From Micavibrio sp. UBA7657 (GTDB taxonomy: Bacteria; Pseudomonadota; Alphaproteobacteria; Micavibrionales; Micavibrionaceae): a DNA stretch of 64,000 bases. Shown piece by piece: positions 1 to 55,306 of the stretch (position 1 is its first letter; every line of letters begins with the position of its first letter). Below the pieces are notes generated by a model. It saw nothing but the letters and a program-made list of their open reading frames with translations, was not told the origin of the DNA and ran no database searches. The position numbers and the translations under genes were made by a program. The stretch covers positions 5,285 to 69,284 of the forward strand of contig DLHX01000018.1 in the NCBI GenBank assembly GCA_002483465.1, written 5' to 3'.

Positions 1-557
1 CCGATTGCCGCCGCCTGATTTCTTTCCCGAAAGAACGGGAAACGCTCATGGATTTTGCTTCGCAGATACTGGAGCAGGAAATCGGCGCAAAAAATATCGA
101 TTACATCGCAGGCGGTGAAACAGCAGGCATTCCTTACGCCGCCTTTCTTTCGCAGAAAATGCAAAAGCCAATGCTTTATATCCGGAAAAAACCAAAAGGT
201 TTCGGTCGTATGGCGCAGATCGAAGGTCATATGGAAGATGAAGGCAAAAAAATTGTCCTCATCGAAGATGTCCAGAATTTCGGCACCAGTGTAAAAATCT
301 TCATCGACGCTCTGCGCGCGGCTAATGCCGTTATCGAACACCTGCTCGTCATCTTCAGCCACGGCCATGAGAGCAGCGCCCGAAACATGCAGGAAATGGA
401 CGTAAAGCTGCATGCCCTGTGTACCTGGCGCGATGTTCTGGACGCGGCCCGCGAAGACGGCTATTTTGATAGCGAGACTTTGGCGTCGGTCGAATCCTTC
501 CTGAACGATCCCGAAGGCTGGGACAAAAATAAATCCTCAACCGTTTCCTCATCATGA
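1..557 (+). CDS. pyrE: orotate phosphoribosyltransferase, 5' end outside window
   Basis: The frame is open from the window edge (..DCRRLISFPKERETL precedes the Met at 48). PRTase motifs DYIAGGETAGIPYA and KIVLIEDVQNFGTS are present. The stop overlaps the nadK start (ATGA). Confidence 0.8.
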   Translation, partial: DCRRLISFPKERETLMDFASQILEQEIGAKNIDYIAGGETAGIPYAAFLSQKMQKPMLYIRKKPKGFGRMAQIEGHMEDEGKKIVLIEDVQNFGTSVKIFIDALRAANAVIEHLLVIFSHGHESSARNMQEMDVKLHALCTWRDVLDAAREDGYFDSETLASVESFLNDPEGWDKNKSSTVSSS

Positions 558-1321
558 AAATTGCATTTCATTCCTCGAAAAAGCCGCGCGCGCAAAAAGC
601 TCTTGAAGAACTCAAGGGCCGGTACGGCAATGCCGATCCTGCAGACGCCGAGGCCATTGTCGTCATCGGCGGTGATGGCACTATGCTCCGCGCCCTGCAC
701 GCTTATGTCGATCACGCGGCTCCCCTTTTCGGCATGAATCTTGGCACGCTGGGTTTTCTTTTGAACAAGCACATGGTCGACAATCTCGATGGGCGCATAA
801 GCGTTGCGACCCGCTTCGTCATTCACCCCTTGCAGATGGACGCCATCGATAAGGACGGCAAGCCACATTCCGAAGTCGCCTTCAACGAAGTCTCATTGCT
901 ACGTGAAAGCCACAACTCGGCTAAAATCCGCATTCATATCGACGATAAGGTGCGCGTACCGGAGCTTGTCTGCGACGGCGTTATGGTTTCCACGCCGGTC
1001 GGCAGCACGGCCTATAACTCATCTGCCGGTGGACCAATCCTGCCGCTTGATGCCAACGTTCTACCATTAACGCCGATCAGCCCGTTCCGCCCGCGACGCT
1101 GGTCGGGTGCGCTGATCCACAACAAACATGAAATCCGTTTCGAGATTTTAAAGCCGGTGGAGCGCATGGTTTCCGCGACGGCAGATTCCAAAGAAGTCCG
1201 CGATGTGCGCGAGGTTGTCGTGCGCGAGGCACGCAGCATCTCCAAAACGCTGCTGTTCGATCCTGATTATTCCCTGGAAGAGAGAATCTCGCGCGAGCAG
1301 TTCGCGAACGAAACCACCTGA
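554..1321 (+). CDS. nadK: NAD kinase
   Basis: Motifs VVIGGDGTMLRA, GTLGFL and STPVGSTAYNSSAGGPI. Confidence 0.9.
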   Translation: MKIAFHSSKKPRAQKALEELKGRYGNADPADAEAIVVIGGDGTMLRALHAYVDHAAPLFGMNLGTLGFLLNKHMVDNLDGRISVATRFVIHPLQMDAIDKDGKPHSEVAFNEVSLLRESHNSAKIRIHIDDKVRVPELVCDGVMVSTPVGSTAYNSSAGGPILPLDANVLPLTPISPFRPRRWSGALIHNKHEIRFEILKPVERMVSATADSKEVRDVREVVVREARSISKTLLFDPDYSLEERISREQFANETT

Positions 1322-1440: not shown

Positions 1441-2301
1441 TTAATGTTTTCTCGGCTTTGAAGGCTTGATTTCGCGGAGCTGTCTTTCGCGCGCCAGGTC
1501 ATTCTCGATGACGCTCAGTTTTTCAGCCGCCTGCTCATCCAAACCGCCAGCCTTCATAATGCCGCCCTCGGGGATGAGGCCCAGTCTCTGCGCGATATAC
1601 TGATAACCTTCAACGAGATCGCCGAGATCAAAACGGAAGCGGTCTTTGTCGAGCTTTTCACCCGTCTTCATGTCCCACAGGCGGCAATTGTCAGGTGAAA
1701 TTTCATCCGCGAGAATGATATACAGTTCGCCGTGCTCACCCCAGATACGTCCGAACTCCAGTTTGAAATCCACGAGCTTCAGCCCGATGCCTGCAAACAG
1801 CCCGTTCAGGTAATCGTTGACGCGCCATGCCATCGCGACCATTTCATCCAGCTCATATGGATCAGCCCAACCAAATGTAATGATATGGTCTTCGCTAACC
1901 ATCGGATCGCCGAGCGCATCTTTCTTGTAGTAAAATTCAACCAGCGGACGACCGAGGAACGTGCCCTCTTTGATACCGAGGCGCTTGACCAGCGATCCTG
2001 CTGCAATATTTCGTACGACGAGTTCAATCGGAATAATCTCAACTTTCCGCACAAGTTGCTCGCGCATATTGATCGAGCGGATGAAGTGCGTCGGGATTCC
2101 AATCGATTCCAGCTTGGTCATCAGGTGCGCGGAAATGCGGTTGTTCAACACGCCCTTGCCCGCAATCACGGCATGTTTAACGCCATTACCCGCCGTCGCG
2201 TCATCCTTGAAATACTGGATGACGGTGTTGGGGTCCGGGCCCTCGTACAAGTTCTTGGCCTTGCCCTCGTAAATAACTCTGCGTCGCGTCATGGAAAACA
2301 T
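1441..2301 (-). CDS. purC: phosphoribosylaminoimidazole-succinocarboxamide (SAICAR) synthase
   Basis: N-terminus [40 protein letters not shown] Shine-Dalgarno before the first ATG. Carries a roughly 30-aa C-terminal tail. Confidence 0.93.
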
Positions 2302-3600: not shown

Positions 3601-4727
3601 ATACGCGTGACCTTGCTATCGCGGTACAAATTGCATGATAAAATCAGGCCAAAGCCGATCATCGCGGCAAGCATCGCCGTACCGCCGTAAGATACCAGCG
3701 GCAACGGCGCGCCAACCACGGGAATCAATCCCATCACCATCGCGATATTGACGAAAACATAAATCGAGAAATTGAAAGTCAGCCCGAACGCGAGGTAACG
3801 CCCGAAATTGTGGCGGGCGCGCAATGCAATCCACAACCCGTACCAGATAATCAGGCCGAACAGCAGCAGCAACGCCACGCCGCCCGCCAGCCCCCACTCC
3901 TCAGCCCAGAGCGTAAAAATGAAATCGGTCTGTTTTTCAGGCAGGAAATCCAGGTGGCTCTGCGAGCCGTCGAGAAATCCCTTCCCCTTTAAGCCGCCGG
4001 ACCCTAGCGCTATTTTCGATTGCGTGATGTGATAGCCCGAACCCAGAGGATCACTCTCCGGATTCAAGAATGTCAACACCCTCTGGCGCTGGTAATCATG
4101 CATGAAATGCCATCCGATCGGGATGGCTCCCGCTACCGCCGCCGCGGCGCCGATAAAAATCCAGAGCGGCGCTCCGGCGACGAACACCATCGCCGCGCCT
4201 GCGAAACTCGTCATCAGCGCAGTGCCGAGATCAGGCTGCAGCATCACAAGTCCGACAGGCGCCCCGATCAGAAGCGCAGGTACAATTAGAAAACTCAGCC
4301 GTTTTATATCCTCCGACGTTGCAGCATGAAAATAGCGCGCCAGCGTCAGAACCAGCGCGACCTTCATCAATTCCGAGGGCTGAAGTTTCATGAAGCCGAG
4401 ATTAATCCAGCGCTGCGCGCCCATGCCGATATGCCCCATGATCTCGACATAAACCAGCAGGATAAAACCTATGCCATAAAGCCACCACGCGAATTTAAAC
4501 CACCAGCGCACATCGATAAGCGCAATGATCAGCATCCCGAAGAAAATCACCGAGAAGCGCTGCATCTGATTTTCGGCCCATGGCTCGAAGTTCCCGCCCG
4601 CTGCGGAATAAAGTGCGGTGAATCCGATACAGGCCACGGTTACAATGAGCGCTATAAACGCCCAGTCGAGATTTTTCAGCTTGTGAATGATTCCCTGCTC
4701 GGACTGTAATATAATCGATTTAACCAT
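3597..4727 (-). CDS. rodA: SEDS peptidoglycan glycosyltransferase RodA
   Basis: FtsW/RodA/SpoVE family polytopic protein immediately downstream of mrdA in the mre operon. Confidence 0.92.
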   Translation of the reverse strand: MVKSIILQSEQGIIHKLKNLDWAFIALIVTVACIGFTALYSAAGGNFEPWAENQMQRFSVIFFGMLIIALIDVRWWFKFAWWLYGIGFILLVYVEIMGHIGMGAQRWINLGFMKLQPSELMKVALVLTLARYFHAATSEDIKRLSFLIVPALLIGAPVGLVMLQPDLGTALMTSFAGAAMVFVAGAPLWIFIGAAAAVAGAIPIGWHFMHDYQRQRVLTFLNPESDPLGSGYHITQSKIALGSGGLKGKGFLDGSQSHLDFLPEKQTDFIFTLWAEEWGLAGGVALLLLFGLIIWYGLWIALRARHNFGRYLAFGLTFNFSIYVFVNIAMVMGLIPVVGAPLPLVSYGGTAMLAAMIGFGLILSCNLYRDSKVTRI

Positions 4728-33505: not shown

Positions 33506-34306
33506 ATGAAAAACATAGTGATTAAAGATAATTTGGCCACGCCAGTGACGTCACTCATAAGCTCTGAAAGCCTTGGGAAAAAGGATTCTCCCGTGGTGGT
33601 CTGGGGGCATGGCTGGGGCCAGAGCCGCAAGGCCTTCCGTCCGCTCGCTGAAGGGCTTGAATCCTTCGGCACCCATATCCTTGTTGATTTTCCCGGTTTC
33701 GGTGACAGCCCCATGCCGCTCGAACCGTGGGGCACAGCCGAATACGCCGATGCTGTCGCCGAGTTCCTGAGACAAAATTCAAACGGTCCTGTCATCTGGG
33801 TCGGGCATTCATTTGGGTGCCGTGTGGGCCTGCAACTGGCCTCGCGCCACCCTGATCTCATCTCGGGGCTCTTCTTAATTGCCGGTGCAGGATTAAAGCG
33901 TAAGCGCCCGTTATGGCAGGACATTTATTTCAAAACGCGCACTCTCGTTTTTAAAGTTTTGAAGAAATTTATTCCTCTCGGCCTGTCCGAAGACTGGCTC
34001 CGCTCCAAATTCGGCAGCACGGATTATAAAAATGCCGGGGCGCTGCGCTCCATCCTTGTCAAAACCATTGGCGAGGATTTATCAGATGTGGCGCGAACCG
34101 TTTCCTGCCCCACAGCATTAGTGTACGGCATGAACGACACCGAAACCCCTCCCGAAATCGGACAGAGACTGCAGAAACTCATCCCCGGCGCTGAACTGAC
34201 CATTCTTCCCGGGCAGGACCACTACAGCGTCCTCGGCGAAGGACGCCACCAGGTCGCGCCTTTACTCAAGCAATTCATGGAGAGAATAGATGCCCGTATT
34301 CGCTAG
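33506..34306 (+). CDS. alpha/beta hydrolase
   Basis: VVWGHGWGQS, DFPGFGDSP, and the nucleophile elbow GHSFGC. The 3' end overlaps the next gene by 17 nt. Confidence 0.8.
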   Translation: MKNIVIKDNLATPVTSLISSESLGKKDSPVVVWGHGWGQSRKAFRPLAEGLESFGTHILVDFPGFGDSPMPLEPWGTAEYADAVAEFLRQNSNGPVIWVGHSFGCRVGLQLASRHPDLISGLFLIAGAGLKRKRPLWQDIYFKTRTLVFKVLKKFIPLGLSEDWLRSKFGSTDYKNAGALRSILVKTIGEDLSDVARTVSCPTALVYGMNDTETPPEIGQRLQKLIPGAELTILPGQDHYSVLGEGRHQVAPLLKQFMERIDARIR

Positions 34307-35882
34307 CACACTCGGCCTTCTTTTGGTTTATGCCGCATGGCTTGCCTTCGCGACGAAGCGCACATCGACTTATCTCCATATCTACCAGCAGGAGGAATAT
34401 GACAGCGGGCGGTTCCTGCGCTGGATGGCGCGTAGTGGCGCCATCGACACGCGCTTTACGCTCGTCCTTCTCATCATCGACGCTTTCTGGCTGCTGTTTC
34501 CCTCGCCCTGGTACATTTTCCTGTTTTTCATAGCCTTTGCCGCCGCCGCCGTCCTTGAGGACGATCCGCGTCATGCCGCGAAAAAGAAACTTGTCCTCAC
34601 GCCGCGCGCACAGCGTATTCTGTTCCTGACGGTTGTGCTTTCCGCCCTGATGGCGACATGGTTCCTCGTCTTTTACTTCCCGTTCTTCTGGATTTTGAAC
34701 GTGCAACTCATCCCGTTCGTCATGCTGGTCGCCAATCTCGCACTCACGCCTTATGAGAATCACGTCCAGAAAAAATACTGGGATCAGGCGCACCGGAAAC
34801 TCGTCGATCTCAAGCCCGTCACGGTGGGTATTACCGGCTCGTTCGGCAAAACATCGGTTAAACATATCCTCGGCCATATCCTGAAAACCCACGCGCCGAC
34901 GCTCATTACACCGGGCAGCGTCAATAGCCCCATGGGCGTGACACGCATCATCCGCGAACAGCTCGAGGACAATCATAAATTCTTTGTCGTCGAGATGGGC
35001 GCTTACGGTCCCGGATCGATCGAACGCCTTTGTCGCCTTGCACCGCCAGACATGGGCATTATCACCGCCGTCGGCCATGCGCATTACGAGCGCTTCAAAA
35101 CCATTGAAACAGTTGCCAAGGCAAAATTCGAACTGGCTCAAGCCGTGCTCGATAAAAAAGGCAAAATTATCACGCACGAAAAACCGCTCGATATCGAATA
35201 CGCGAAAATTAAAACCCGCGAGAACCGCAGCAGCTTCATCATCGTCGGCGAAACGCCGGTAAGCGATGCGATCATTGAGCGCGCCGAACAATTGCCCGAG
35301 GGCCTGCGGGTTTTTATCCGCTGGAACGGCGATAGTTACAGACTGGAGGCGCCGCTTTACGGCCTGCACCACGCGCAGAACATGGCGCTGGCCTTTACTG
35401 CCGCCGTCACCTTGGGTATTCCCGCCGAAAACGCCGTCACCGCGCTCAAATCCGTGCCGCAGATCACGCACCGCCTTGAAGTCAAAAGACCCGGCGACGG
35501 CACGACGCTCATCGACGACGCCTTCAACTCCAACCCTGTCGGCTTCGCCTCGGCGCTCGACCTCCTGCCCGTGCTCGGACGGCAGGGCCGCAAAATCCTC
35601 ATCACGCCCGGCATGGTCGAGCTCGGTGAGGCACACGCTGAAGAGCATGAAAAAATTGGCAAGAAGGCTGGTGAAATCTGCGACGTCATTATCATCGTGC
35701 AGGGCAAGCGCATCCCGACCTTCATGGAGGGCGCGCGGGCGACCGGCAGCACGAAGACCTTCATCGAAGTCGATACGTTCCAGCAGGCGAATGCGTGGCT
35801 TGATCAAAACCGCAAGGACGGCGACGTGATTTTAATTGAAAATGATTTGCCGGATCTTTATGAGCGGAAACTGAAGATCTAG
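34290..35882 (+). CDS. MurF-family Mur ligase with an N-terminal polytopic membrane domain
   Basis: Residues 1-150 hold about four hydrophobic helices. Then come the Mur ligase P-loop GITGSFGKTS, GSVNSPMGV, VVEMGAYGPGSI, AVGHAHYERF, the C-domain DDAFNSNP and PGMVELGE. GGAGAG Shine-Dalgarno. The strand is opposite to the rest of the dcw cluster. Confidence 0.85.
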   Translation: MPVFASTLGLLLVYAAWLAFATKRTSTYLHIYQQEEYDSGRFLRWMARSGAIDTRFTLVLLIIDAFWLLFPSPWYIFLFFIAFAAAAVLEDDPRHAAKKKLVLTPRAQRILFLTVVLSALMATWFLVFYFPFFWILNVQLIPFVMLVANLALTPYENHVQKKYWDQAHRKLVDLKPVTVGITGSFGKTSVKHILGHILKTHAPTLITPGSVNSPMGVTRIIREQLEDNHKFFVVEMGAYGPGSIERLCRLAPPDMGIITAVGHAHYERFKTIETVAKAKFELAQAVLDKKGKIITHEKPLDIEYAKIKTRENRSSFIIVGETPVSDAIIERAEQLPEGLRVFIRWNGDSYRLEAPLYGLHHAQNMALAFTAAVTLGIPAENAVTALKSVPQITHRLEVKRPGDGTTLIDDAFNSNPVGFASALDLLPVLGRQGRKILITPGMVELGEAHAEEHEKIGKKAGEICDVIIIVQGKRIPTFMEGARATGSTKTFIEVDTFQQANAWLDQNRKDGDVILIENDLPDLYERKLKI

Positions 35883-36760
35883 CGCTCCCCAACAATATTA
35901 ATTTCCCAGCGCAGGTTGATGCCAAGCTGTTCCTTTGCGCGGCGGCGAATTTCCTCGCCGAGATTCTCTAAATCGGCTGCAGTAGCATCGCCCGTATTAA
36001 TCATAAAATTCGAATGCATCGGCGACATCTGTGCCCCGCCGATCTTCAATTCGTGACCGCCGACTTTCTGTACGATTTGCCATGCCTTCAATTCGCCGGA
36101 CGGATTGGCAAAAGTCGAGCCGCCGGTTTTCTCGCGAATAGGCTGCGTCTCGTTGCGCTTGGTTTTAATTTCATTCATCCGCGCCTTGACGGTTTCATAA
36201 TCCTCACGCCTGCCCTTGAAAATCGCGCTCGTAAAAACCGCGCCTTTTGGCGGGTCGGTGTGGCGATAGGTCATGTGCAAATCTTCCGGCACAAATTTTT
36301 TGATCTCACCCTGCCGCGTCACGGCGTTGATTCCGGTTAAAACATCCTTCACTTCCGTGCCGTATGCGCCAGCATTCATGCGCAGCGCGCCGCCGACGCA
36401 TCCCGGGATGCCCGATAAAAATTCCAGCCCGCCGATGCCTGCTTTCACCGCCGCCGCTGCAACCGATCCGTTCAGCGCGCCCGCGCCCGCCTCGATATAA
36501 TCGCCAAGGACTTTAATCTCCGAAAATTCCTTGCCGAGCTGGATGGTCAAGCCGCGAATGCCGCCGTCGCGGATGATGGTGTTGGCGAGCCCGCCGAGCA
36601 CGGTCACTTCACCGTCATGCTCTTTCAAAAATTGCGCGAGTTCATCGGCGTGAGCCGGGCGCAACAACTGGTCCGCATTGCCGCCGCAGCCGAACCAGCT
36701 TTCTTTGCCGAGGGGAAAATTTTCAAGAACCTGACCAAGCATCTGCTCTTTATTCATCAT
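35879..36760 (-). CDS. murB: UDP-N-acetylenolpyruvoylglucosamine reductase
   Basis: MurB FAD-binding and C-terminal motifs (..WFGCGGNAD.., GGLANTIIRDGG, GSTFANP). The ATG at 36760 is preferred; the track's 36832 start would overlap the upstream ORF by 83 nt. Confidence 0.9.
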   Translation of the reverse strand: MMNKEQMLGQVLENFPLGKESWFGCGGNADQLLRPAHADELAQFLKEHDGEVTVLGGLANTIIRDGGIRGLTIQLGKEFSEIKVLGDYIEAGAGALNGSVAAAAVKAGIGGLEFLSGIPGCVGGALRMNAGAYGTEVKDVLTGINAVTRQGEIKKFVPEDLHMTYRHTDPPKGAVFTSAIFKGRREDYETVKARMNEIKTKRNETQPIREKTGGSTFANPSGELKAWQIVQKVGGHELKIGGAQMSPMHSNFMINTGDATAADLENLGEEIRRRAKEQLGINLRWEINIVGER

Positions 36761-37199
36761 TGATGACTGCATATTCACCATCGAGTGTGAAATTGGCGTT
36801 TTCTTTAAGAGTGCAATCGTTTTTATACCCACTCTTTAAATGTGGCCTTAAGCCTTTCTTCTCAATTTTTATAACTATTTTATTTTTTATGAAAGCAAAA
36901 GCCCACAATCCATCATCATCCACATTAGGCAATTTATTTTCAAAATCCCCTAAATAAGATTGCGAATTCTTAATGATTTCCTCAGGATCTGAATAAGGGG
37001 ATAAAATACAAACTGTATCCCAATCATAATTTGTAACTTCGGCCAGATACACTTTTGAGGAAGATTTAAATTTTTCGTTCGTTTTATTCCAAAAACTATT
37101 CGTTAGTTCTGAAATTATAATGGAAAGAAAAAATCCGGCAATCATTAAACAAGGAACACCAAACAATATTCCAAATAGCCATAGAAAAAAAATTCTCAT
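36750..37199 (-). CDS. hypothetical membrane-anchored protein (AT-rich insertion)
   Basis: N-terminal hydrophobic anchor FFLWLFGILFGVPCLMIAGFFLSIII plus a roughly 115-aa soluble domain. Two sampled lines are 28% and 35% G+C. The start shares a base with the murC stop (TAATG). Confidence 0.6.
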   Translation of the reverse strand: MRIFFLWLFGILFGVPCLMIAGFFLSIIISELTNSFWNKTNEKFKSSSKVYLAEVTNYDWDTVCILSPYSDPEEIIKNSQSYLGDFENKLPNVDDDGLWAFAFIKNKIVIKIEKKGLRPHLKSGYKNDCTLKENANFTLDGEYAVINDE

Positions 37200-38641
37200 T
37201 ACGCCGCGTTGCCTTTGGAACGAGCGAAAAGCGGCTCAAGCTCGCCGGGGAGCGCGTAGGCCCAATAGGTGATATCCCCCGCCCCTAAACAAATCACGTA
37301 ATCGCCCGGCTGCGCCATTGACGCCACGCGCCGCGCGAGCTCTTCCTTGCCGGAAAGCGGCAACACATGACGGTGGCCGTGTTTTCTAATGCCTTCAATC
37401 AGCGAATCCCGGCTCGCGCCGTCAATCGGCTGCTCGCCCGCCGTATACACATCGGCGACGATCACGCTGTCCGCTTCATTAAAACAGGTGCAGAAATCCT
37501 CGAACAAATCATGGAGCCTCGTAAATCTGTGCGGCTGCATGACGGCGATCACGCGCCCGCCATTTTCCGCCACCATCATACGCGCGGTTTTTAAAACCGT
37601 TTCAATTTCCACCGGGTGATGCGCGTAATCGTCAATCACCGTCACGCCCGCCGCCTCGCCGGTTTTCGTGAAACGGCGTTTGACGCCCGTAAACCCGGCC
37701 AACGCTTTTTTCATCACCGGCGGCGCCACCTGCATCTCGCAGGCAATCGCCAGCGCAACGAGCGAATTCTGCACATTATGATGTCCCGGCATCGGCAGAT
37801 GCACATCCTTCAGAACCAATTCCTTATTTTTGTTCAGCCTTGGCGCAAAGGTCACATCGAATAAACTTCCATTCGCACCGCTGCGGATATTCGACGCGTG
37901 CACATCGGCTTGCGGGTTGAAACCGTATGTAATCACTTTACGGTCCTGGATCGTGGGAATGAGCGCCTGCACTTCCGGGTGGTCCATGCACAAAACCGCA
38001 TAACCATAGAAGGGAATGTTATGAATGAACTGGCGGTAGGCTTCCTTCACCTTCTCGAAATCACCGTAATGGTCAAGGTGTTCGGGGTCGATGTTCGTCA
38101 CCACCGCAACCGTCGCCGGCAAATGTGTGAAGGTACCGTCGCTCTCGTCGGCCTCCACCACCATCCACTCGCTTTTGCCGAGGCGGATGTTGTTGCCGTA
38201 GGCATTAACGATGCCGCCATTGATGACGGTCGGATCGAACCCTGCGATTTCCATCATCTGGCCGACCATCGATGTCGTCGTCGTTTTTCCGTGCGTGCCC
38301 GCCACCGCGACCGCTGATTTCAATCTCATCAGTTCCGCCAGCATCTCGGCGCGGCGCACGATGGGAATATTTTTTGCGCGCGCAGCCTTCAATTCTGGAT
38401 TGTCGTTTTTTACGGCGGAGGAAATCACCACGGCGGTGACGTCGCCGATATTCTTCGCGTCATGGCCGATGAAAATTTTAATGCCGCGCTCTTTTAATCT
38501 TTTAACATTTGCGCTCTCGGATAGATCCGACCCCTGCACCGCGTAACCAAGCACGGATAAAATCTCGGCAATCCCGCTCATGCCGATGCCGCCGATGCCG
38601 ACGAAATGCAATGTGCCGATGTCTTCGGGCAAGCCCTTCAT
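37199..38641 (-). CDS. murC: UDP-N-acetylmuramate--L-alanine ligase
   Basis: [33 protein letters not shown] Shine-Dalgarno. Confidence 0.96.
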
Positions 38642-38675
38642 GGAGATTCCTTATTGCCTCTAAAATTCCTTTACT

Positions 38676-38700
38676 GTCACCCCCGCGAAGGCGGGGGTCC
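38676..38700. repeat. REP-like hairpin GTCACCCCCGC-GAAG-GCGGGGGTCC
   Basis: 7-bp G/C stem with a 4-nt loop. Exact (25/25) reverse complement of 53173-53197 inside ileS. Confidence 0.85.
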
Positions 38701-38707
38701 GGCAAAG

Positions 38708-39454
38708 TTACATAAATTTGCGCTTTTTGAAAACCCGAACATCCAAAGCTGTAAGATTAAACCACTCACCATTGAGATGTTTATCTTTGAATCTGTTATG
38801 CCAGTAAGTTTCTATTCCACTCGGATCATCTGTGCGTATGCTATGAATAGGTTCAATTTTTTCAGGCAATTGTATGCCAATCTCGTACTGGCGCCGATCA
38901 AGTGCCTTAGTACACCCAATTTTATAATTCTTTCCTGATTTCATAAGATAAACAAAACCAAAATCTTCCTGATCCCTAAAATCCTCAACATCCTCTTCTA
39001 CTGAAGTGGTATGCCCTGTTATTAGAGGCTCACAAATTTCTAATATGTCTTGGTACTCGTCAGGAGTTTGACGACAAAAATTCTTTACCGCCTCTATCAT
39101 GCTCTTTTTTTTGCCGAGGTTTTTAGCGAAGGTAGCGTAATCGGGAAAATGTTCATTACGAGCAGATTCTCGTTTGAATTCCACCTTCATAGGAAAATGG
39201 CCTAATGTTCTGATGAATGTAATAAGTTTTTCAATAAGAATATCTTGGCCATACGCTCCTTGAAATTGATTGGGCGTATAACCAGCTTCTGCCTGAACAT
39301 CGCTCCAACGATTCCAATCATTCCAAGCTTTTCCCAACCAATCATCTCGCTTGATGCCGGTAGCCTGAAAGAATTGGCCCATTCCTAAAGGCTTGCCACC
39401 ATTTTTTTCAGCGGTTCTTTTGATTTCGCTCAGAATGTGCTGTTTTTTATCCAT
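38708..39454 (-). CDS. GIY-YIG superfamily (T5orf172/MUG113-like) nuclease with two N-terminal homing-endonuclease-associated repeats
   Basis: C-terminus GFVYLMKSGKNYKIGCT..LDRRQYE...IHSIRTDD....E..WHNRFKDKHLNGEWFNL. The N-terminal half is two roughly 55-aa repeats (ILSEIKRTAEKNGGKPL..W..W......AGY and ILIEKLITFIRTLGHFPM...F). Two sampled lines are 33% and 38% G+C. Confidence 0.75.
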   Translation of the reverse strand: MDKKQHILSEIKRTAEKNGGKPLGMGQFFQATGIKRDDWLGKAWNDWNRWSDVQAEAGYTPNQFQGAYGQDILIEKLITFIRTLGHFPMKVEFKRESARNEHFPDYATFAKNLGKKKSMIEAVKNFCRQTPDEYQDILEICEPLITGHTTSVEEDVEDFRDQEDFGFVYLMKSGKNYKIGCTKALDRRQYEIGIQLPEKIEPIHSIRTDDPSGIETYWHNRFKDKHLNGEWFNLTALDVRVFKKRKFM

Positions 39455-39503
39455 CGCCGGAATATAGCATTATGGATAAAAATCTCAAATCTCTTAAATT
39501 GCC

Positions 39504-39528
39504 GGATGCCCGCCTGCGCGGGCATGAC
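39504..39528. repeat. REP-like hairpin GGATGCCCGC-CTGC-GCGGGCATGAC
   Basis: 8-bp stem ATGCCCGC/GCGGGCAT with a 4-nt loop. Same GGA..../....TGAC termini as the other copies, inverted relative to 38676-38700. Confidence 0.8.
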
Positions 39529-39556
39529 AATTATTGCACTTTAACGATTAAAGGGA

Positions 39557-40663
39557 TCAATCCCCCCAGCCACTCACCATCGCGGTGACCAGGTTGCCGA
39601 GCTTGCGCGCGGCGTCCGGTTTCCCGCAGCTTCTCGATTTTTCGGCCGCCCGGAAGAGAATGGAGGGATTTTGCAGGAAAGTCTCGATTCTTGCAAGCAG
39701 GGCCTCGGTGGTGAAACCGCCCTCTGCCATGACCCAAGCCCCGCCTGCATCGGCCACGGTTTCGGCATTCATTTTCTGCTGCTGGTCCTTATGATGTGGA
39801 TACGGCACGAAAATTGCCGGGCGGCCCGCCGTGGTGACTTCGGCCACCGTGCTGGCGCCCGAGCGGCCTATAATAAGGTGGGCTTTGGACAATTCCCCAG
39901 CCACATCGTCGAAGAATGACCTCAGATCGCACTTGATGCCCGCAACTTCGTATGTCCGGCGCACGGATTCAAGATCGTCATTCCGGCATTGCTGCACGAC
40001 ATATAGACGTTGACGGTATTCGGCTGAAAGTTTTGCCAGAGTCTGCGGCACGATATCGCTGAATACTTTTGCGCCCAGCGATCCGCCCATGACAAATATC
40101 CTGAGCGGCGTTTCGTGACCGAGATTGGGATAAGGCTGGGTGTAGAGCGCCGCGATGTCGGGACGTACCGGGTTGCCGGTGACAACCGAGCGCATGCGTT
40201 CGCTGTCATCCAACCCCTGAACCACGGGCAGCGAGAGCGCGATGCGCGCCGCCTTGCGCGCAAGGAATGCATTCGCATTACCGATGATGGCGTTCTGCTC
40301 ATGGATAATTGTTGGCACGCCCATTTTCTGCGCGGCATAAACCGCCGGGACAGATGGATAGCCGCCGAAACCGACCACCAGTTTCGGTTTCAGTTTCATA
40401 ATCAGCATCAGCGCCTGCCCGAACCCCATACCGAGATTGGCCGCACCCTTGATCTTGCCCATCGCGCCCGCCCCGAACGTACCGGAGCGCAGGACATGCG
40501 CGGGAATTTCACCGAACATATGCTGGTATTTCATGCCGCGCTCATCTGTAGCCAGTTCGATGCGGAACCCCCGCGATCGAAGGTCTTCCGCAAGCGCCTG
40601 CGCGGGCGTCATATGCCCACCCGTGCCGCCACTGCTGAGAAGAATGAGATTATCCTGTTTCAT
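39557..40663 (-). CDS. murG: undecaprenyldiphospho-muramoylpentapeptide beta-N-acetylglucosaminyltransferase
   Basis: GGTGGHMTPAQALA and the C-terminal GASTVAE motif. Confidence 0.95.
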   Translation of the reverse strand: MKQDNLILLSSGGTGGHMTPAQALAEDLRSRGFRIELATDERGMKYQHMFGEIPAHVLRSGTFGAGAMGKIKGAANLGMGFGQALMLIMKLKPKLVVGFGGYPSVPAVYAAQKMGVPTIIHEQNAIIGNANAFLARKAARIALSLPVVQGLDDSERMRSVVTGNPVRPDIAALYTQPYPNLGHETPLRIFVMGGSLGAKVFSDIVPQTLAKLSAEYRQRLYVVQQCRNDDLESVRRTYEVAGIKCDLRSFFDDVAGELSKAHLIIGRSGASTVAEVTTAGRPAIFVPYPHHKDQQQKMNAETVADAGGAWVMAEGGFTTEALLARIETFLQNPSILFRAAEKSRSCGKPDAARKLGNLVTAMVSGWGD

Positions 40664-41832
40664 GGCTGGTTCCCTGCCTCCAGAACACGCGCTTTTGATG
40701 ACATGCCTGCACGCGCGACGCTGCCCCGCGCCTGACGACGTGTCAATGCAAGCACCGCGCCCATTGAAAATCCGAGCGAGAGAATGGACGAGCCGCCGTA
40801 ACTGATGAAAGGCAGAGTCATGCCTTTCGCTGGCAGAATATTCATCGCCGAGCCCATATGCACCAGCGCCTGCAAACCGAACATCGTCAGCAAACCGCCG
40901 ACCGCCAGCACCGCGAACATATTGTCACTGGTCGTCAGGCGGTTAAGACCGCGCCACATGATAAATCCGAAAACCGCTATGATGATCAATACGAACCACA
41001 ATCCCATTTCCTCGCCCGCGACGGAAAAAATAAAATCGGCGTGTGCATCTGGTAAACCGCTTTTGACCGTACCCTGTCCCGGGCCGGTGCCTGCGATGCC
41101 GCCGTTCTGGAAGGCTTCCAGCGAGCGATCCACTTGATAGTTGTCGCCGCTTTCTGGTTTGAAGAATCTATCGACGCGGTAACGCACGTGTTCGAAGAAG
41201 AGATAAGCGCATCCCAAGCATGCCGCGCCGATAGCGCTAAAAATCGCGAGGATGCGGAAGCGAAAACCGGCGAGGAAAATCTGCGACGCCCAGATGCAGG
41301 TAACAACAATCGTCATACCGAGATCGGGCTGCAGCATCAATAATCCCACCGTCAGGAAGCAAAGGCCTGCCGCGATAAGGTTGCCCGGGAATTTCGCGTT
41401 CTCCTTCTGCCGCGACATGAACCATGCCGCGACAATGGCGAAAGACGGCTTCGCGAGCTCGCTGGGCTGTAGCGAAAAACCAAACAGATGAATCCAGCGC
41501 TGCGCGCCCTTGATCTCCACCCCGTGAAACAGCACGACGATCATAGCCGCAAGACTGGCAATGAATAGAATACTTGCCGCGCGCCAGATCATGCGCGGAC
41601 TGAGCATAGAAATACCCATCAGCAAGCCAAGCGCAGGCAGCAGCATCATGAGATGGCGTTTGAGGAAATGGTATGAATTGAGGCCAAGTGTTTCCGCGAC
41701 CGGCGGGCTCGCCGTACTGACCAGCACAATGCCGAAAACAATCAGCAGGATAAACGCCGCGAGCAGGCCGCGATCCACCGTCCACCACCAGCGGCCAAGG
41801 AAAGACGTATCCGTTCTTGAGAACATGCTCAT
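40660..41832 (-). CDS. ftsW: SEDS lipid II flippase/polymerase FtsW
   Basis: FtsW/RodA family protein between murD and murG. Confidence 0.93.
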   Translation of the reverse strand: MSMFSRTDTSFLGRWWWTVDRGLLAAFILLIVFGIVLVSTASPPVAETLGLNSYHFLKRHLMMLLPALGLLMGISMLSPRMIWRAASILFIASLAAMIVVLFHGVEIKGAQRWIHLFGFSLQPSELAKPSFAIVAAWFMSRQKENAKFPGNLIAAGLCFLTVGLLMLQPDLGMTIVVTCIWASQIFLAGFRFRILAIFSAIGAACLGCAYLFFEHVRYRVDRFFKPESGDNYQVDRSLEAFQNGGIAGTGPGQGTVKSGLPDAHADFIFSVAGEEMGLWFVLIIIAVFGFIMWRGLNRLTTSDNMFAVLAVGGLLTMFGLQALVHMGSAMNILPAKGMTLPFISYGGSSILSLGFSMGAVLALTRRQARGSVARAGMSSKARVLEAGNQP

Positions 41833-49875: not shown

Positions 49876-50237
49876 TACATCAGACGATCTGTAAGCCGGG
49901 TTCTGTCCTCTTGCGAGGGACGGCCATTCATCTGGGATGTCTGTTACCAGACACCTCGAGCGACCTACCCGGACTGCGGCGTGAAAATGCGCCTGTTAAG
50001 TCAATAACCTGCAGTCCCTATTTGGTCTTGCTTCCAGCGAGGTTTACCGTGCCGTTCCTGTTACCAGGAACGCGGTGGGCTCTTACCCCACCCTTTCACC
50101 CTTACCTGCAAGCAGGCGGTTTGCTTTCTGTTGCACTGTCTGTCGGCTTGCGCCGCCCGGGCGTTACCCGGCGCTGTATTTCCATGAAGCCCGGACTTTC
50201 CTCCCCTTGCGGAGCGGCCATCCGATCTTCTGACATG
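49876..50237 (-). ncRNA. rnpB: RNase P RNA, bacterial type A
   Basis: The reverse strand contains the universal blocks GGAGGAAAGTCCGGGCT, CAGTGCAACAGAAAGCAAACCGCC, GGTAAGGGTGAAAGGGTGGGGTAAGAGCCCACCG and ACAGAACCCGGCTTA. P1 pairs TCAGAAGATC with GATCGTCTGA. Ends are approximate. Confidence 0.93.
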
Positions 50238-52450: not shown

Positions 52451-55306
52451 TTATGCCGCTTTCTGCTTCTGCTGCTTCACAGCCTCGGCGCAGCGGATGC
52501 AGAGTGTGGGATGCTCTTTGTTCTCGCCAACTTCCGGCAACACTTTCCAGCAGCGCCCGCATTTATCGCCTTCAGCTTTCTGAAAGGTCACTTTCGTTTC
52601 TGCAGCATTTTCCACAGTCGCCTGCGAGGTGATGCAGATTTCCGCCATGTCAATTCCATCAAGGCCCGCCGCCTCGATCACAGGGTGCGCTTCGAGCGAC
52701 GAGCCAATCGTTTTATCGGCACGCTTCGGCTCCAGCGTTGCGAGAACAGCCGAACGCACTTTCGAAATATTTTCCCATTTCACTTTCAGCGCATCGTTTT
52801 TCCAATCTTTCGGAATCTGCGGGAATGCGTGGAAGTGGATGCTGTCGCTATCCTCGAACACGCCTTTGGGGCGGTAGCTCCAGGCTTCTTCCGCCGTGAA
52901 GCAGAGGAGCGGCGCGAACCATGACGTGACGCATTCGAAAATATGCGCGATGACGGTGCGGCAGGCGCGGCGCTCGAATGACTCAGCCGCGTCGCAGTAC
53001 AAACGGTCCTTGCGGATATCGAAATAGAACGCTGACAATTCATTATTGCAGAAATGGTGGAGCTTGTTGGCGAGGCGGCCGTAATCGTGGCTTTGGATGC
53101 AACCCCGAACAAATTCATCCATTTCAGAGAGAAGATGGAGCATGTAACGCTCCAGTTCGGGAACGTCGGGATGGACCCCCGCCTTCGCGGGGGTGACATC
53201 GAGAGAAATTTTTTCCTGCGCGGTGAAACCATCCAGCGCGCCCAGCAAAAATCTAAACGTATTCCTGATACGGCGGTAAAGATCGCCGATGTTTTTGAGG
53301 CTGTCCTGACCGATGCGGACGTCTTCGGCGTAATCCGACGTCATCACCCACAGGCGCAAAATGTCCGCGCCATAAGTCTCCATGACCTTCAGCGGATCGG
53401 TGACATTGCCCTCCGACTTCGACATCTTGTAGCCTTTTTCATCGAGCACAAAGCCATGCGTCAGCACCGATTTGTACGGCGCATGCCCACGCGTGCCGCA
53501 AGATTCCAGGAGCGATGAATGGAACCAGCCGCGATGCTGGTCGGATCCTTCGAGATACATGTCGGCGGGGCTGCTCAATTCCTCGCGGTCTTCGGCGACG
53601 AACGCATGCGTGCAGCCGGATTCAAACCAGACATCGACGATGTCGAACACCTGGTTGTAATCCTCGGTGTCGTAATCGCCGCCGAGGAAATAGGACGCCG
53701 GGCGCTTCCACCACGAGTCGGAGCCTTCTGCTTCGAACGTATCCTGAATTTTTTTGAAGACATCTTCGTCGATCATCGGCTTGCCGGTGACCTTGTGCAC
53801 GAACAGCGCGATGGGAACGCCCCATGCGCGTTGGCGCGAAATGCACCAGTCGGGGCGCTGCTCGATCATTGACCGAATTCGTATTTCTCCTTTAGCAGGC
53901 ACCCATTGCGTGTTGCCGATGGCTTTCAAGGCGCGCTGGCGCAATGTCGTGCCGTCGCTGAATTCCCTGTCCATCGCGATGAACCATTGCGGCGTGGCGC
54001 GGAAGATCAACGGCGCCTTGGAGCGCCAGCTGTGCGGGTATTCATGGCGCATCGAACCCTTGGCGAGCAAATGCCCGGCCATATCGATTTCCTTGATGAC
54101 CGCGAAATTGGCCTGACCCAGTTCGCCCTTCTGCGTGTAGACCTCGAGGCCGGCAAAGAGCGGGATGTGGCCGCGGAACGTGCCGTCGTCATCCAGATTG
54201 TCGGTCATCTCGAGGCCGTTCGCGAGGCCGAGATTGAAGTCGTCAACGCCGTGGCTCGGCGCGATATGGACGAAGCCGGTACCGGTGTCTTCGGTGACGA
54301 AATCCCCGGCGAGCAGCGGCACTTCGAAATCATAGCCCTTGCCGTTCAAAGGGTGGTTAGTAATCGTGCCCGCGAAATCTTTGCCCTTGAACGAGGCAAG
54401 TTCAGCAAGTTCAGAAATTTTAGCGTCTTTCTTGACCTGCTCCGAAAGTTTTTTCGAAAGCAGAAGTTTCTCGCCGGTTTTCGCCTTGCTGCCTTCGGCG
54501 ACTGATTTCACTTCGTACAGCGCGTATTCCATGTCCGGGCCGTAGCCGATGGCGCGATTGGACGGCAGCGTCCATGGCGTGGTCGTCCAGATGACGAAAT
54601 TCGCGCCTTCCAGTTCCTTCTTCGACGCCTTCACGACCGGGAATTTCACCCAAACCGTGACGGATTTATGTTCCTTGTATTCGACTTCGGCTTCGGCGAG
54701 TGCTGTTTTTTCAACCGTCGACCACATGACCGGCTTCGCGCCGCGATACAGGCCGCCGTTGGATGCGAACTTATGAATCTCGCGCACGATGGAGGCTTCG
54801 GCGTGATTGGTCATGGTGAGGTAAGGGTTATCCCAGTCGCCAGCAACGCCGAGGCGCTGGAATTGTTTCGACTGGGTTTCGACCCAGCCTGCTGCGAATT
54901 TGCGGCATTCGTCGCGGAACTGGAGGATATCGACATCGTCCTTGTCCTTGCCCGCCTCGCGGTATTTTTCCTCGATCTTCCATTCGATCGGCAGGCCGTG
55001 GCAGTCCCAGCCGGGGACGTAAGGGCTGTCATAGCCCATCATCTGCCAGGAACGGACGACGACGTCTTTCAAAATCTTGTTCATTGCGTGGCCGATATGG
55101 ATGTTGCCGTTCGCGTAGGGCGGCCCGTCATGCAAGACCCATTTAGGCTTACCTGCTGATTGCTTACGCACCGTGTCGTAAAGCCTCATTCCGTCCCATT
55201 TTTTGACTGTTTCCGGCTCGTTTTTCGGCAGTTCGCCGCGCATAGGGAAATCCGTTTTGGGGAGGAAAACGGTATCGCGGTACTGGTCTTTGTTATCGGT
55301 GCTCAT
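52451..55306 (-). CDS. ileS: isoleucine--tRNA ligase
   Basis: HIGHAMNK and KMSKSEGN class I motifs, a CP1 editing domain, and a C-terminal Zn-ribbon CGRCW...CIRC. Confidence 0.97.
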   Translation of the reverse strand: MSTDNKDQYRDTVFLPKTDFPMRGELPKNEPETVKKWDGMRLYDTVRKQSAGKPKWVLHDGPPYANGNIHIGHAMNKILKDVVVRSWQMMGYDSPYVPGWDCHGLPIEWKIEEKYREAGKDKDDVDILQFRDECRKFAAGWVETQSKQFQRLGVAGDWDNPYLTMTNHAEASIVREIHKFASNGGLYRGAKPVMWSTVEKTALAEAEVEYKEHKSVTVWVKFPVVKASKKELEGANFVIWTTTPWTLPSNRAIGYGPDMEYALYEVKSVAEGSKAKTGEKLLLSKKLSEQVKKDAKISELAELASFKGKDFAGTITNHPLNGKGYDFEVPLLAGDFVTEDTGTGFVHIAPSHGVDDFNLGLANGLEMTDNLDDDGTFRGHIPLFAGLEVYTQKGELGQANFAVIKEIDMAGHLLAKGSMRHEYPHSWRSKAPLIFRATPQWFIAMDREFSDGTTLRQRALKAIGNTQWVPAKGEIRIRSMIEQRPDWCISRQRAWGVPIALFVHKVTGKPMIDEDVFKKIQDTFEAEGSDSWWKRPASYFLGGDYDTEDYNQVFDIVDVWFESGCTHAFVAEDREELSSPADMYLEGSDQHRGWFHSSLLESCGTRGHAPYKSVLTHGFVLDEKGYKMSKSEGNVTDPLKVMETYGADILRLWVMTSDYAEDVRIGQDSLKNIGDLYRRIRNTFRFLLGALDGFTAQEKISLDVTPAKAGVHPDVPELERYMLHLLSEMDEFVRGCIQSHDYGRLANKLHHFCNNELSAFYFDIRKDRLYCDAAESFERRACRTVIAHIFECVTSWFAPLLCFTAEEAWSYRPKGVFEDSDSIHFHAFPQIPKDWKNDALKVKWENISKVRSAVLATLEPKRADKTIGSSLEAHPVIEAAGLDGIDMAEICITSQATVENAAETKVTFQKAEGDKCGRCWKVLPEVGENKEHPTLCIRCAEAVKQQKQKAA
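53173..53197. repeat. REP-like hairpin GGACCCCCGC-CTTC-GCGGGGGTGAC inside the ileS coding sequence
   Basis: Exact reverse complement of 38676-38700. Translated in the ileS frame it reads VTPAKAGVH. Confidence 0.85.

Follow-up and report, generated by a model that had tools for sequence, protein, structure and literature searches.

A two-domain GIY-YIG nuclease gene in the spacer of a CGTC-1 REP hairpin dimer in the dcw cluster of Micavibrio sp. UBA7657

Introduction

What keeps a nuclease gene between two inverted copies of a dispersed hairpin, at a junction within an essential gene cluster? The question is raised by a stretch of 64,000 nt from Micavibrio sp. UBA7657 (assembly GCA_002483465.1, contig DLHX01000018.1, positions 5,285 to 69,284 of the forward strand), the whole of which is referred to here as the window. 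On its minus strand the division and cell wall (dcw) cluster runs in the order ftsW, murG, ORF248, murC, ORF149, murB, where ORF248 is an open reading frame (ORF) for a 248-aa GIY-YIG nuclease of the MUG113/T5orf172 type. A first-pass annotation of the window, made from the letters alone, had pointed to an AT-rich block with this ORF and two oppositely oriented hairpins between murG and murC, all of which are present, and had read the arrangement as a local family of repetitive extragenic palindromic (REP)-like hairpins with a new kind of nuclease partner.

The analysis presented here places the gene in the spacer of a standard tags-outward dimer of CGTC-1 REPs, a unit that is inherited or moved as a whole. 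We put a probability of about 0.5 on the further proposal that this unit is an insertion sequence (IS)-like or homing-like cassette, with a nuclease that would act on its own flanking hairpins by analogy with a smaller enzyme of the same superfamily.

The cassette at the murG-murC junction

The interval between murG (39557-40663, minus strand) and murC (37199-38641, minus strand) measures 915 nt (38642-39556). It contains an AT-rich block at 38675-39529 with about 39% GC overall (0.37-0.44 over the block vs 0.52-0.63 in the flanking mur genes), which holds the ORF248 gene (38708-39454, minus strand; GC 39%, and 34.5% at third codon positions, GC3), a promoter-like site and two inverted hairpins. 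The block is a true insertion, as had been proposed, since a sister strain has an empty junction. In the contigs L239 and L240 of this strain (L numbers denote the loci compared with the window), the MurG protein is 100% identical to that of the window, the murG DNA 97.7% and MurC about 98% identical, and the murG-murC gap is 22 nt, with no hairpin and no gene. More distant relatives also have an empty site, with a gap of 16 nt in L220 and of 93 nt in L130. The latter gap holds a different tags-outward palindromic dimer, GTCATTGCGAG...CTCGCAATGAC (3969-4063), which has the same GTCAT/ATCCAG ends on another stem.

All contigs of the window strain that reach the junction carry the cassette, apart from one contig end (L234, positions 1-52; ENA ERZ28613981 scaffold_34232). 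The murC protein in this contig is identical to that of the window, and an unrelated AT-rich sequence, matching nothing else compared, is found to the left of GTGACAGTAAAGG. The switch to this sequence coincides exactly with the outer edge of the downstream hairpin, and the contig end is either chimeric or the sign of a third allele that breaks at the hairpin tag.

The two hairpins flank the gene in opposite orientation. The downstream hairpin (38675-38702, core 38676-38700, plus strand) reads TGTCACCCCCGCGAAGGCGGGGGTCCGG as plus strand, with the core GTCACCCCCGCGAAGGCGGGGGTCC, and is located 5 nt past the ORF248 stop codon with its tag pointing outward, towards murC. The upstream hairpin (39502-39529, core 39504-39528, minus strand; TGTCATGCCCGCGCAGGCGGGCATCCGG, core GGATGCCCGCCTGCGCGGGCATGAC) has its tag outward to murG and its tail inward. 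It is followed by CAA, and the inverted repeat between the cassette ends therefore extends to TCCGGCAA and TTGCCGGA. The hairpin architecture given in the first-pass annotation holds at these positions, with the stem refined to 8 bp (A..CCCGC/GCGGG..T). The two copies differ by two compensatory stem pairs, CC/GG vs TG/CA, and when folded as single-stranded DNA they reach -10.7 kcal/mol (z -2.3) for the downstream and -12.2 kcal/mol (z -3.35) for the upstream hairpin.

Between the upstream hairpin and the gene is a promoter-like site, TTGAGA-16 nt-(TG)cTATATT (39461-39488, minus strand), which matches 10 of 12 consensus positions, has a TG preceding the -10 element, and ends 6 nt before the ATG. 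The CTATATT element is found at an unchanged distance from the ATG in L130, L133 and L218, a conservation that favours the earlier suggestion that the cassette carries its own promoter. The position of the site implies that the ORF248 mRNA would be leaderless or have a very short leader.

Identity and distribution of the hairpin

The window hairpins are CGTC-1 REPs (Di Nocera 2013, PMC3733652), alias NTS or SRM (Chenal 2025, PMC11893778). In REPs of this class a stem of 8 bp closes a loop of 4 nt, the (C/T)GTC tag is unpaired and the tail is CC(A/G)/CCA, and most copies occur as inverted dimers; they equal the Neisseria dRS3 and Rickettsia RPE-6 repeats, and Micavibrio aeruginosavorus is named among the hosts (PMC3733652). 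The same account reports a preference of REPs for intergenic DNA and occasional intragenic in-frame copies of CGTC REPs, for which no associated transposase or nuclease gene was identified (PMC3733652). The hairpins in the window fit the description with respect to stem, loop, unpaired tag (TGTC/CGTC) and tail, and share with it the mostly inverted pairing and an in-frame intragenic copy. The copy at 38679 has C instead of T in the second stem position and the tail CCG instead of CCA. What differs from CGTC REPs as described in 2013 is the presence of a nuclease gene inside the dimer. Where the first-pass annotation assumed a local family, the repeat is a known one that is found in many phyla.

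The consensus 25-mer given in that annotation has three matches in the window vs 0.03 expected. The published degenerate SRM search sequence matches exactly 38675-38702, 39502-39529 and 53171-53198, compared with a mean of 0.07 over 30 simulated first-order Markov windows. The third site is a solo hairpin inside ileS (52451-55306), on the minus strand with the core at 53173-53197. It is a 25/25 copy that is in frame and encodes VTPAKAGVH, a 9-residue insertion relative to the solved IleS structures (8c9f and 1ffy). A fourth copy (1408-1433), with a 5-nt loop, is located just 3' of purC. It forms the right unit of a gene-less tags-outward dimer (1324-1433) in the spacer between the convergent genes for NAD kinase (554-1321, plus strand) and purC (1441-2301, minus strand), and the left unit of this dimer, GTCATCCCCG...CGGGGATCC, has an unusually long 25-nt loop. 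The copies in ileS and downstream of purC had both been noticed in the first pass.

Two other interpretations of the hairpins were discarded. A role as intrinsic terminators was dropped, as a terminator scan returned no terminator-like site, neither hairpin being followed by a T-run; an Rfam search found nothing at these positions. A type I-E CRISPR repeat, suggested by a resemblance of the stem, was rejected from the sequence, which shows neither an array nor regular spacing.

Of all genes, ssnA is the one that NTS hairpins flank most consistently, and it codes for a 94-aa single-domain GIY-YIG protein (cd10448; Chenal et al., Nat Commun 2025, PMC11893778). In a scan of one genome per species with the pattern GTCAYSCCCGC-N4-5-GCGGGSRTCC, hairpins were found at 119 or more loci from Alpha-, Beta-, Gamma- and Deltaproteobacteria, Planctomycetes, Patescibacteria, Omnitrophota and other groups. 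The 119 loci listed hold 139 pairs of neighbouring hairpins, and in 87 of these the tags point outward and the units are separated by less than 100 nt, with the orientation that is also seen around ORF248. Tags-outward pairs that are 250-3000 nt apart number only three in this set, and two of them hold ssnA-like ORFs. Such ORFs, all of which match PF01541, are found beside or between hairpins in 5 of the 119 loci, so that the published association is seen again in this sample. In Rhodopseudomonas pentothenatexigens (L028, 5775-7310), a compound unit of the hairpin dimer and other hairpin types is repeated in tandem about every 310 nt, and the array contains no nuclease gene.

The ORF248 protein

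ORF248 matches MUG113 (PF13455) with an E-value of 6e-14 and 52.8 bits (Pfam cut-off 22.3), and T5orf172 (PF10544) with an E-value of 9e-7 and 29.8 bits (Pfam cut-off 20). Its database annotation is 'GIY-YIG nuclease family protein [Micavibrio sp.]'. The family comprises 1,518 proteins at E up to 0.001, with members from several phyla that are about 50% identical over the full length, and both Pfam profiles are matched by 29 of the 29 members that were aligned.

The C-terminal GIY-YIG domain, as delimited by alignment and domain model, spans residues 163-248 (38711-38968, minus strand). Residues that are invariant in the 29 sequences include Tyr169, Lys178, Gly180, Arg188, Glu191, His204 and Glu215, as well as the motif Glu230-Trp231-Phe232, and the block Y-K178-I-G180 (YKIG) is likewise invariant in 29/29. 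By analogy with characterized GIY-YIG enzymes, Tyr169, the YKIG block, Arg188 and Glu215 can be expected to have catalytic roles. The relatives of ORF248 are all full length and retain the invariant catalytic-motif residues. When modelled alone, the C-terminal 89 residues assume a beta-beta-alpha-beta-alpha core with pLDDT 90.4 and pTM 0.80. In a Foldseek search against the PDB, six of the seven best matches to this model are Slx1 (best probability 0.99, TMq 0.63) and the seventh is the UPF0213 entry 1zg2, both of which are GIY-YIG folds, although with weak E-values of 0.05-0.8. The full-length AlphaFold model has pLDDT 87 and pTM 0.41, with a mobile or loose domain arrangement, and gave only noise in Foldseek. 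By profile, motif and fold, ORF248 belongs to the MUG113/T5orf172 branch of the GIY-YIG superfamily, and the first-pass assignment of the C-terminus was correct.

The N-terminal region (residues 1-125; 39080-39454, minus strand) is all-helical in the AF2 model, with pLDDT around 90. It had been described as two copies of a repeat that accompanies homing endonucleases, and this agrees with the family as a whole. The homing-endonuclease-associated repeat HNH_repeat (PF18780) is sub-threshold in ORF248 itself (residues 73-100, E 0.018) and significant in 20 of the 29 family members, some of which match at residues ~3-56 and others at ~66-111. Because the profile matches at two positions across members, the N-terminal half can be assigned, at the family level, to two tandem copies of PF18780. 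The repeat region is presumed to be a DNA-binding module.

Searches of NCBIfam, PADLOC and PDB sequences with ORF248 returned nothing, and in PHROGs only families of unknown function were matched. No close relative was found on plasmids (one 33% partial match). A set of 50,697 phage records contained no homologue, and IMG/VR only five.

Linkage of gene and hairpins across the clade

If the hairpins are the boundaries of the cassette, as the first-pass annotation held, they should accompany the gene to other sites. The clade sample covers ten genomic contexts, window included, with 57-100% amino acid identity (57-75% for the relatives). In the window the gene is at the murG/murC junction, and in the Micavibrio-like L130, L220 and L222 at the murC/murB junction. 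It is located upstream of scpB in L134, between pepA and a radical-SAM gene in L221, between a PTAC-domain gene and adh_short in L218, and at three further sites in L133, L136 and L138. Across the ten contexts, 12 hairpins are within 130 nt of the gene ends vs 3 in the other 107,104 nt (binomial p 1e-17), and all 12 gene-adjacent hairpins have outward-pointing GTCA tags. The contexts share a common plan. On the 5' side, GTCA-stem-loop-stem-TCCGGCAA is followed by about 45 nt with TTGAGx-16/17-CTATATT ending 6 nt before the ATG, and on the 3' side the gene is followed by 4-17 nt and then by TTGCCGGA-stem-loop-stem-TGAC. The inward extension of the inverted repeat is present in several contexts.

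Hairpins are found on both sides of the gene in at least 5 of the 10 contexts, and on at least one side in 8 to 9. In L134, L136, L218 and L220 the copy on one or both sides is truncated or decayed, and in L222 another palindromic repeat brackets the gene in place of the hairpins. This second palindromic family, with ACGGAG or CGCAGAG units, is seen around the T5orf172 gene in three loci. It lies outside the hairpins in L220 (2690-2790 and 3560-3630), replaces them in L222 (1100-1140 and 1880-1930), and occurs within a 555-nt stretch upstream of the gene in L136 (~320-410).

Gene and hairpins are thus found together at several chromosomal sites of related alphaproteobacteria, as one unit with the gene in the spacer of the dimer. 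An opposing explanation would be a chance juxtaposition, where an acquired gene creates two new intergenic spaces in which generic REPs or terminators gather. The hairpin is indeed abundant in many phyla, mostly far from such genes, and REPs favour intergenic DNA (PMC3733652). Chance is nevertheless effectively excluded by the 12 vs 3 enrichment and uniform orientation in ten contexts, by the inverted repeat that reaches beyond the hairpin, by the lack of a terminator-like site and of a T-run after either hairpin, and by ORF149, the other AT-rich insert in the cluster, which has no hairpins. The first-pass annotation had named three ways in which it could fail, namely ubiquitous hairpins without enrichment at such genes, relatives carrying the gene without hairpins, and profile searches that do not support the GIY-YIG fold. 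When these were followed up, the hairpins proved ubiquitous yet strongly enriched at the clade, relatives were found to carry the gene with hairpins, and both profiles and fold support GIY-YIG.

Comparison with known systems

The closest counterpart is the NTS/SRM-SsnA system. On single-stranded DNA, SsnA binds the NTS hairpin and cleaves one strand only, immediately 5' of it; its homologues have NTS on both sides in 42% and on at least one side in 71% of cases, and the NTS-ssnA-NTS layout resembles an insertion sequence (PMC11893778). The cassette in the window has the same hairpin (NTS is CGTCATTCCCGCGMAVGCGGGAATCYRG), which matches the published SRM search sequence, and the same hairpin-gene-hairpin bracket with tags outward and a GIY-YIG superfamily gene enclosed. 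Bracketing is about as frequent in the ORF248 clade as in SsnA homologues. A GIY-YIG partner for a REP-like family, put forward as new in the first-pass annotation, consequently has a precedent in SsnA, which is flanked by the hairpins, binds them and cuts next to them (PMC11893778). The bracket principle itself has been known since 2025; what is new is that the hairpin partner is a different, two-domain GIY-YIG family.

Unlike SsnA, which is a single domain of ~94 aa (PF01541/cd10448) in a family of single-domain proteins with some 90-150 aa, ORF248 has 248 aa with an added folded N-terminal region of ~145 aa, and it matches PF13455 and PF10544 with no match to PF01541 at E up to 1. Another difference is the promoter-like site between hairpin and ATG in ORF248, as the ssnA-like loci inspected start within a few codons of the hairpin. 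A hidden Markov model (HMM) built from hairpin-associated ssnA-like ORFs has no match in the window, and hhalign of the ORF248 family with the ssnA-like ORFs aligns only 31 columns, around the GIY...YIG...R block, with a probability of 20%. ORF248 is not a member of Ssn, given its two domains, its different Pfam families, the lack of an ssnA-HMM match, and the motif block as the only shared part. The two gene types are seen side by side in one locus (L159, 322-1409), where a T5orf172 family gene is followed directly by an ssnA-like (PF01541) gene with a CGTC-like hairpin of another stem type, GTGGCCGGGCTTGGCCCGGCCATCC, between them.

The protein set of the Ssn survey was obtained with cd00719 position-specific scoring matrices (PSSMs) from RefSeq reference genomes (PMC11893778). 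The ORF248 clade is known mostly from metagenome-assembled genomes. The cd00719 PSSMs are not known to include T5orf172 or MUG113, and in the literature searched we found no paper that ties either family to CGTC-1/SRM hairpins.

The cassette also resembles the REP/RAYT arrangement (REPtrons and REPINs), in that a single nuclease-type gene is bracketed by inverted dispersed hairpins that also form gene-less doublets. RAYTs belong to the HUH/Y1 transposases (IS200/IS605 family) and the tag of their REPs is GTAG, unlike the GIY-YIG hydrolase and the (C/T)GTC tag found here. A RAYT interpretation was rejected, since the Pfam search returned no Y1 domain (only GIY-YIG-type and HNH_repeat matches) and there is no GTAG tag.

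In protein architecture, ORF248 resembles free-standing GIY-YIG/T5orf172 homing endonuclease genes (HEGs) of phages, such as those for the T4 Seg proteins and the T5orf172 HEGs of ICP1, which combine a nuclease domain with tandem small DNA-binding repeats like 'beads on a string' (PMC10448857). As for the phage T5orf172 genes, which sit between essential genes (PMC10448857), ORF248 is located between essential conserved genes, is present or absent among close relatives, and has locally diverged flanks. The pairing of a predicted nuclease with a separate, presumed DNA-binding module, and the variable occupancy of one conserved site among close relatives, are likewise features of free-standing HEGs. 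In contrast to the phage genes, ORF248 is chromosomal in a non-phage context, its repeats are of the PF18780 type and not CapR zinc-fingers, and the constant neighbour of its clade is the hairpin repeat, not a particular host gene.

Finally, integron cassettes are similar in being short promoter-poor or single-gene units bounded by a structured recombination site. The ORF248 copy differs from these with SRM hairpins on both sides and a promoter-like site of its own, and an integron-cassette interpretation of the window copy was rejected since its flanks have no attC-type GTTRRRY/RYYYAAC cores.

Homing-like cassette, host factor or passenger

On the model of SsnA, we propose that the gene, a free-standing member of the MUG113/T5orf172 GIY-YIG branch with two N-terminal repeats of the homing endonuclease type and a promoter of its own, placed in the spacer of a tags-outward CGTC-1 REP dimer, would encode a nuclease that recognises the hairpins on either side of it, or the dimer that they form. 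The resulting breaks would lead to recombinational repair that copies the cassette into other hairpin dimers or intergenic slots, or retains it there. Such a process would be homing-like, i.e., break-induced copying, and not true transposition with strand transfer, since GIY-YIG enzymes are DNA hydrolases that pass through no covalent strand-transfer intermediate. Recognition of the hairpin is suggested by a bracket that is specific and conserved across sites, by the fact that the only other gene known in it, ssnA, codes for a GIY-YIG nuclease acting on the hairpin, and by the likeness of ORF248 to a free-standing homing endonuclease (phage T5orf172 genes, PMC10448857). We would also regard a random passenger as an unlikely explanation for the presence of a second GIY-YIG gene in this bracket.

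Several observations weigh against this homing-like mechanism. Four of the ten contexts (window, L130, L220 and L222) are in the dcw cluster, and the T5orf172 identity among these copies (63-74%) equals that of MurC (63-74%) and MurG (68-70%), which could reflect long vertical residence instead of active movement. In one alternative, the gene would be a domesticated host factor, a vertically inherited and immobile enzyme at SRM hairpins that modulates recombination or incoming single-stranded DNA, as proposed for Neisseria SsnA. The dcw contexts and their matching divergence favour such a role, as do the full-length protein with catalytic residues invariant in all members and the presence of the cassette in all contigs of the window strain. 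We nevertheless consider it improbable. The gene is present in one and absent in another of two strains with 97.7% identical murG DNA, its junction differs (murG/murC here and murC/murB in the relatives), and six contexts are outside the dcw cluster. In addition, the clade genes have a foreign, AT-rich composition (GC 32-41%, GC3 20-36%) in loci or hosts of 42-60% GC, with un-ameliorated GC3 in hosts of 50-60% GC. This composition argues for continued horizontal movement, even with dcw copies that diverge as much as MurC and MurG.

The empty allele adds a further complication for the homing-like mechanism, as the cassette is not the sole difference between the filled and empty alleles. No alignment is possible for the intergenic bases, and four synonymous changes fall in the last six codons of murG. 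In murC the differences affect the first ~50 nt, identity over the first 60 nt being 77%, whereas adjoining DNA is at 98-100%. Arrival by recombination with short co-converted flanks would fit these differences; however, similar diverged patches are found elsewhere in the alignment, and we place no weight on this interpretation. A general role for the nuclease is also contradicted by the hairpin scan, where no T5orf172-like domain is found among the 119 loci listed, 5 of which have ssnA-like ORFs; an ORF248-type nuclease is therefore not a general mobiliser of the repeat. In the wider family, sampled as 79 metagenome loci with members 44-50% identical, no CGTC-1/SRM hairpins are present at any of the loci, and at least 9 of the 79 genes are ordinary integron cassettes, where the gene behaves as cargo. 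In these nine (L143, L146, L161, L168, L188, L191, L200, L209 and L213), a GTTRRRY core is found just upstream and a complete attC downstream, the attC sites of distant members having been read by eye. Strong flanking inverted repeats are found at 13% of the family genes vs 0.7% of control genes, a signal that derives mainly from the hairpin clade and the integron cassettes, plus a few other palindromes (L139, L172 and L208). The notion that the family as a whole is always nested in palindromes accordingly fails.

In the main rival explanation the T5orf172 gene is a passenger that at some time landed in a hairpin dimer, e.g., a nuclease of a selfish or defence type whose target is unrelated. 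Dimer and cargo would then be moved by an SsnA-type nuclease encoded elsewhere, or by homologous recombination through the flanking genes or the hairpins. The distant members that ride as integrase-mobilised integron cassettes without hairpins are in line with a passenger, and SsnA is the experimentally shown hairpin partner, with ssnA-like genes recurring in hairpin loci. Likewise, differences in the bases adjoining the filled and empty alleles are expected for allelic replacement by recombination, and the adjacent murC/murB junction holds unrelated small genes depending on the strain (ORF149 or a GNAT-like ORF). On the other hand, a passenger requires a coincidence, as the sole gene seen within the dimer, over ten contexts, once more encodes a GIY-YIG nuclease. 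Neither the window nor ~125 kb of related loci, a small part of a genome, contains an ssnA-like gene, and PADLOC assigns ORF248 to no defence family. We regard a passenger as less probable than a cassette whose nuclease acts on its flanking hairpins.

The homing-like proposal can be extended to the whole clade, which would then be a second, independently recruited family of SRM-hairpin-specific nucleases that uses its added DNA-binding module and drives homing of the cassette, and perhaps spread of the dimer, in alphaproteobacteria without ssnA. This extension is tentative, and we would at present rather doubt it than rely on it.

Other features of the locus

Upstream in the dcw cluster, ftsW (40660-41832, minus strand) precedes murG. 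Between murC and murB, ORF149 (36750-37199, minus strand; 149 aa) is a second AT-rich dcw insert, with about 30% GC. It begins at the murC stop codon and encodes a protein with an N-terminal hydrophobic helix; it has no significant family match and no hairpins on either side. The murC/murB junction appears as a second variable slot, occupied by ORF149 in the window, by an unrelated 181-aa GNAT-like ORF in the sister strain (L239, 5087-5632), and by the T5orf172 cassette in L130, L220 and L222. Between murB and ddl, a 530-aa Mur-ligase-like gene (34290-35882, plus strand) and an adjoining alpha/beta-hydrolase gene are located on the opposite strand, and the pair is kept in a Micavibrio-like relative (L130, 7496-9852). 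The only Rfam match in the window is a class A bacterial RNase P RNA (49876-50233, minus strand; 322 bits).

Implications

In 2013 it was unclear what moves CGTC-type REPs, and the discovery of SsnA gave part of the answer in 2025. If a second GIY-YIG lineage indeed operates in the same bracket, the partnership between hairpin and nuclease arose more than once. Because the ORF248 lineage is unrelated to SsnA beyond the catalytic motif, it would be a natural comparison for the recognition of SRM hairpins, and if active on hairpins it would add a two-domain enzyme to the hairpin-directed nucleases that are under development as tools for single-stranded DNA. Should the clade prove to be a second hairpin-specific family, the CGTC REP class would gain a second autonomous element, and SRM dimers would be general docking sites for GIY-YIG genes. 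For the Micavibrio-like predators, junctions within the essential dcw operon are variable slots for small foreign genes.

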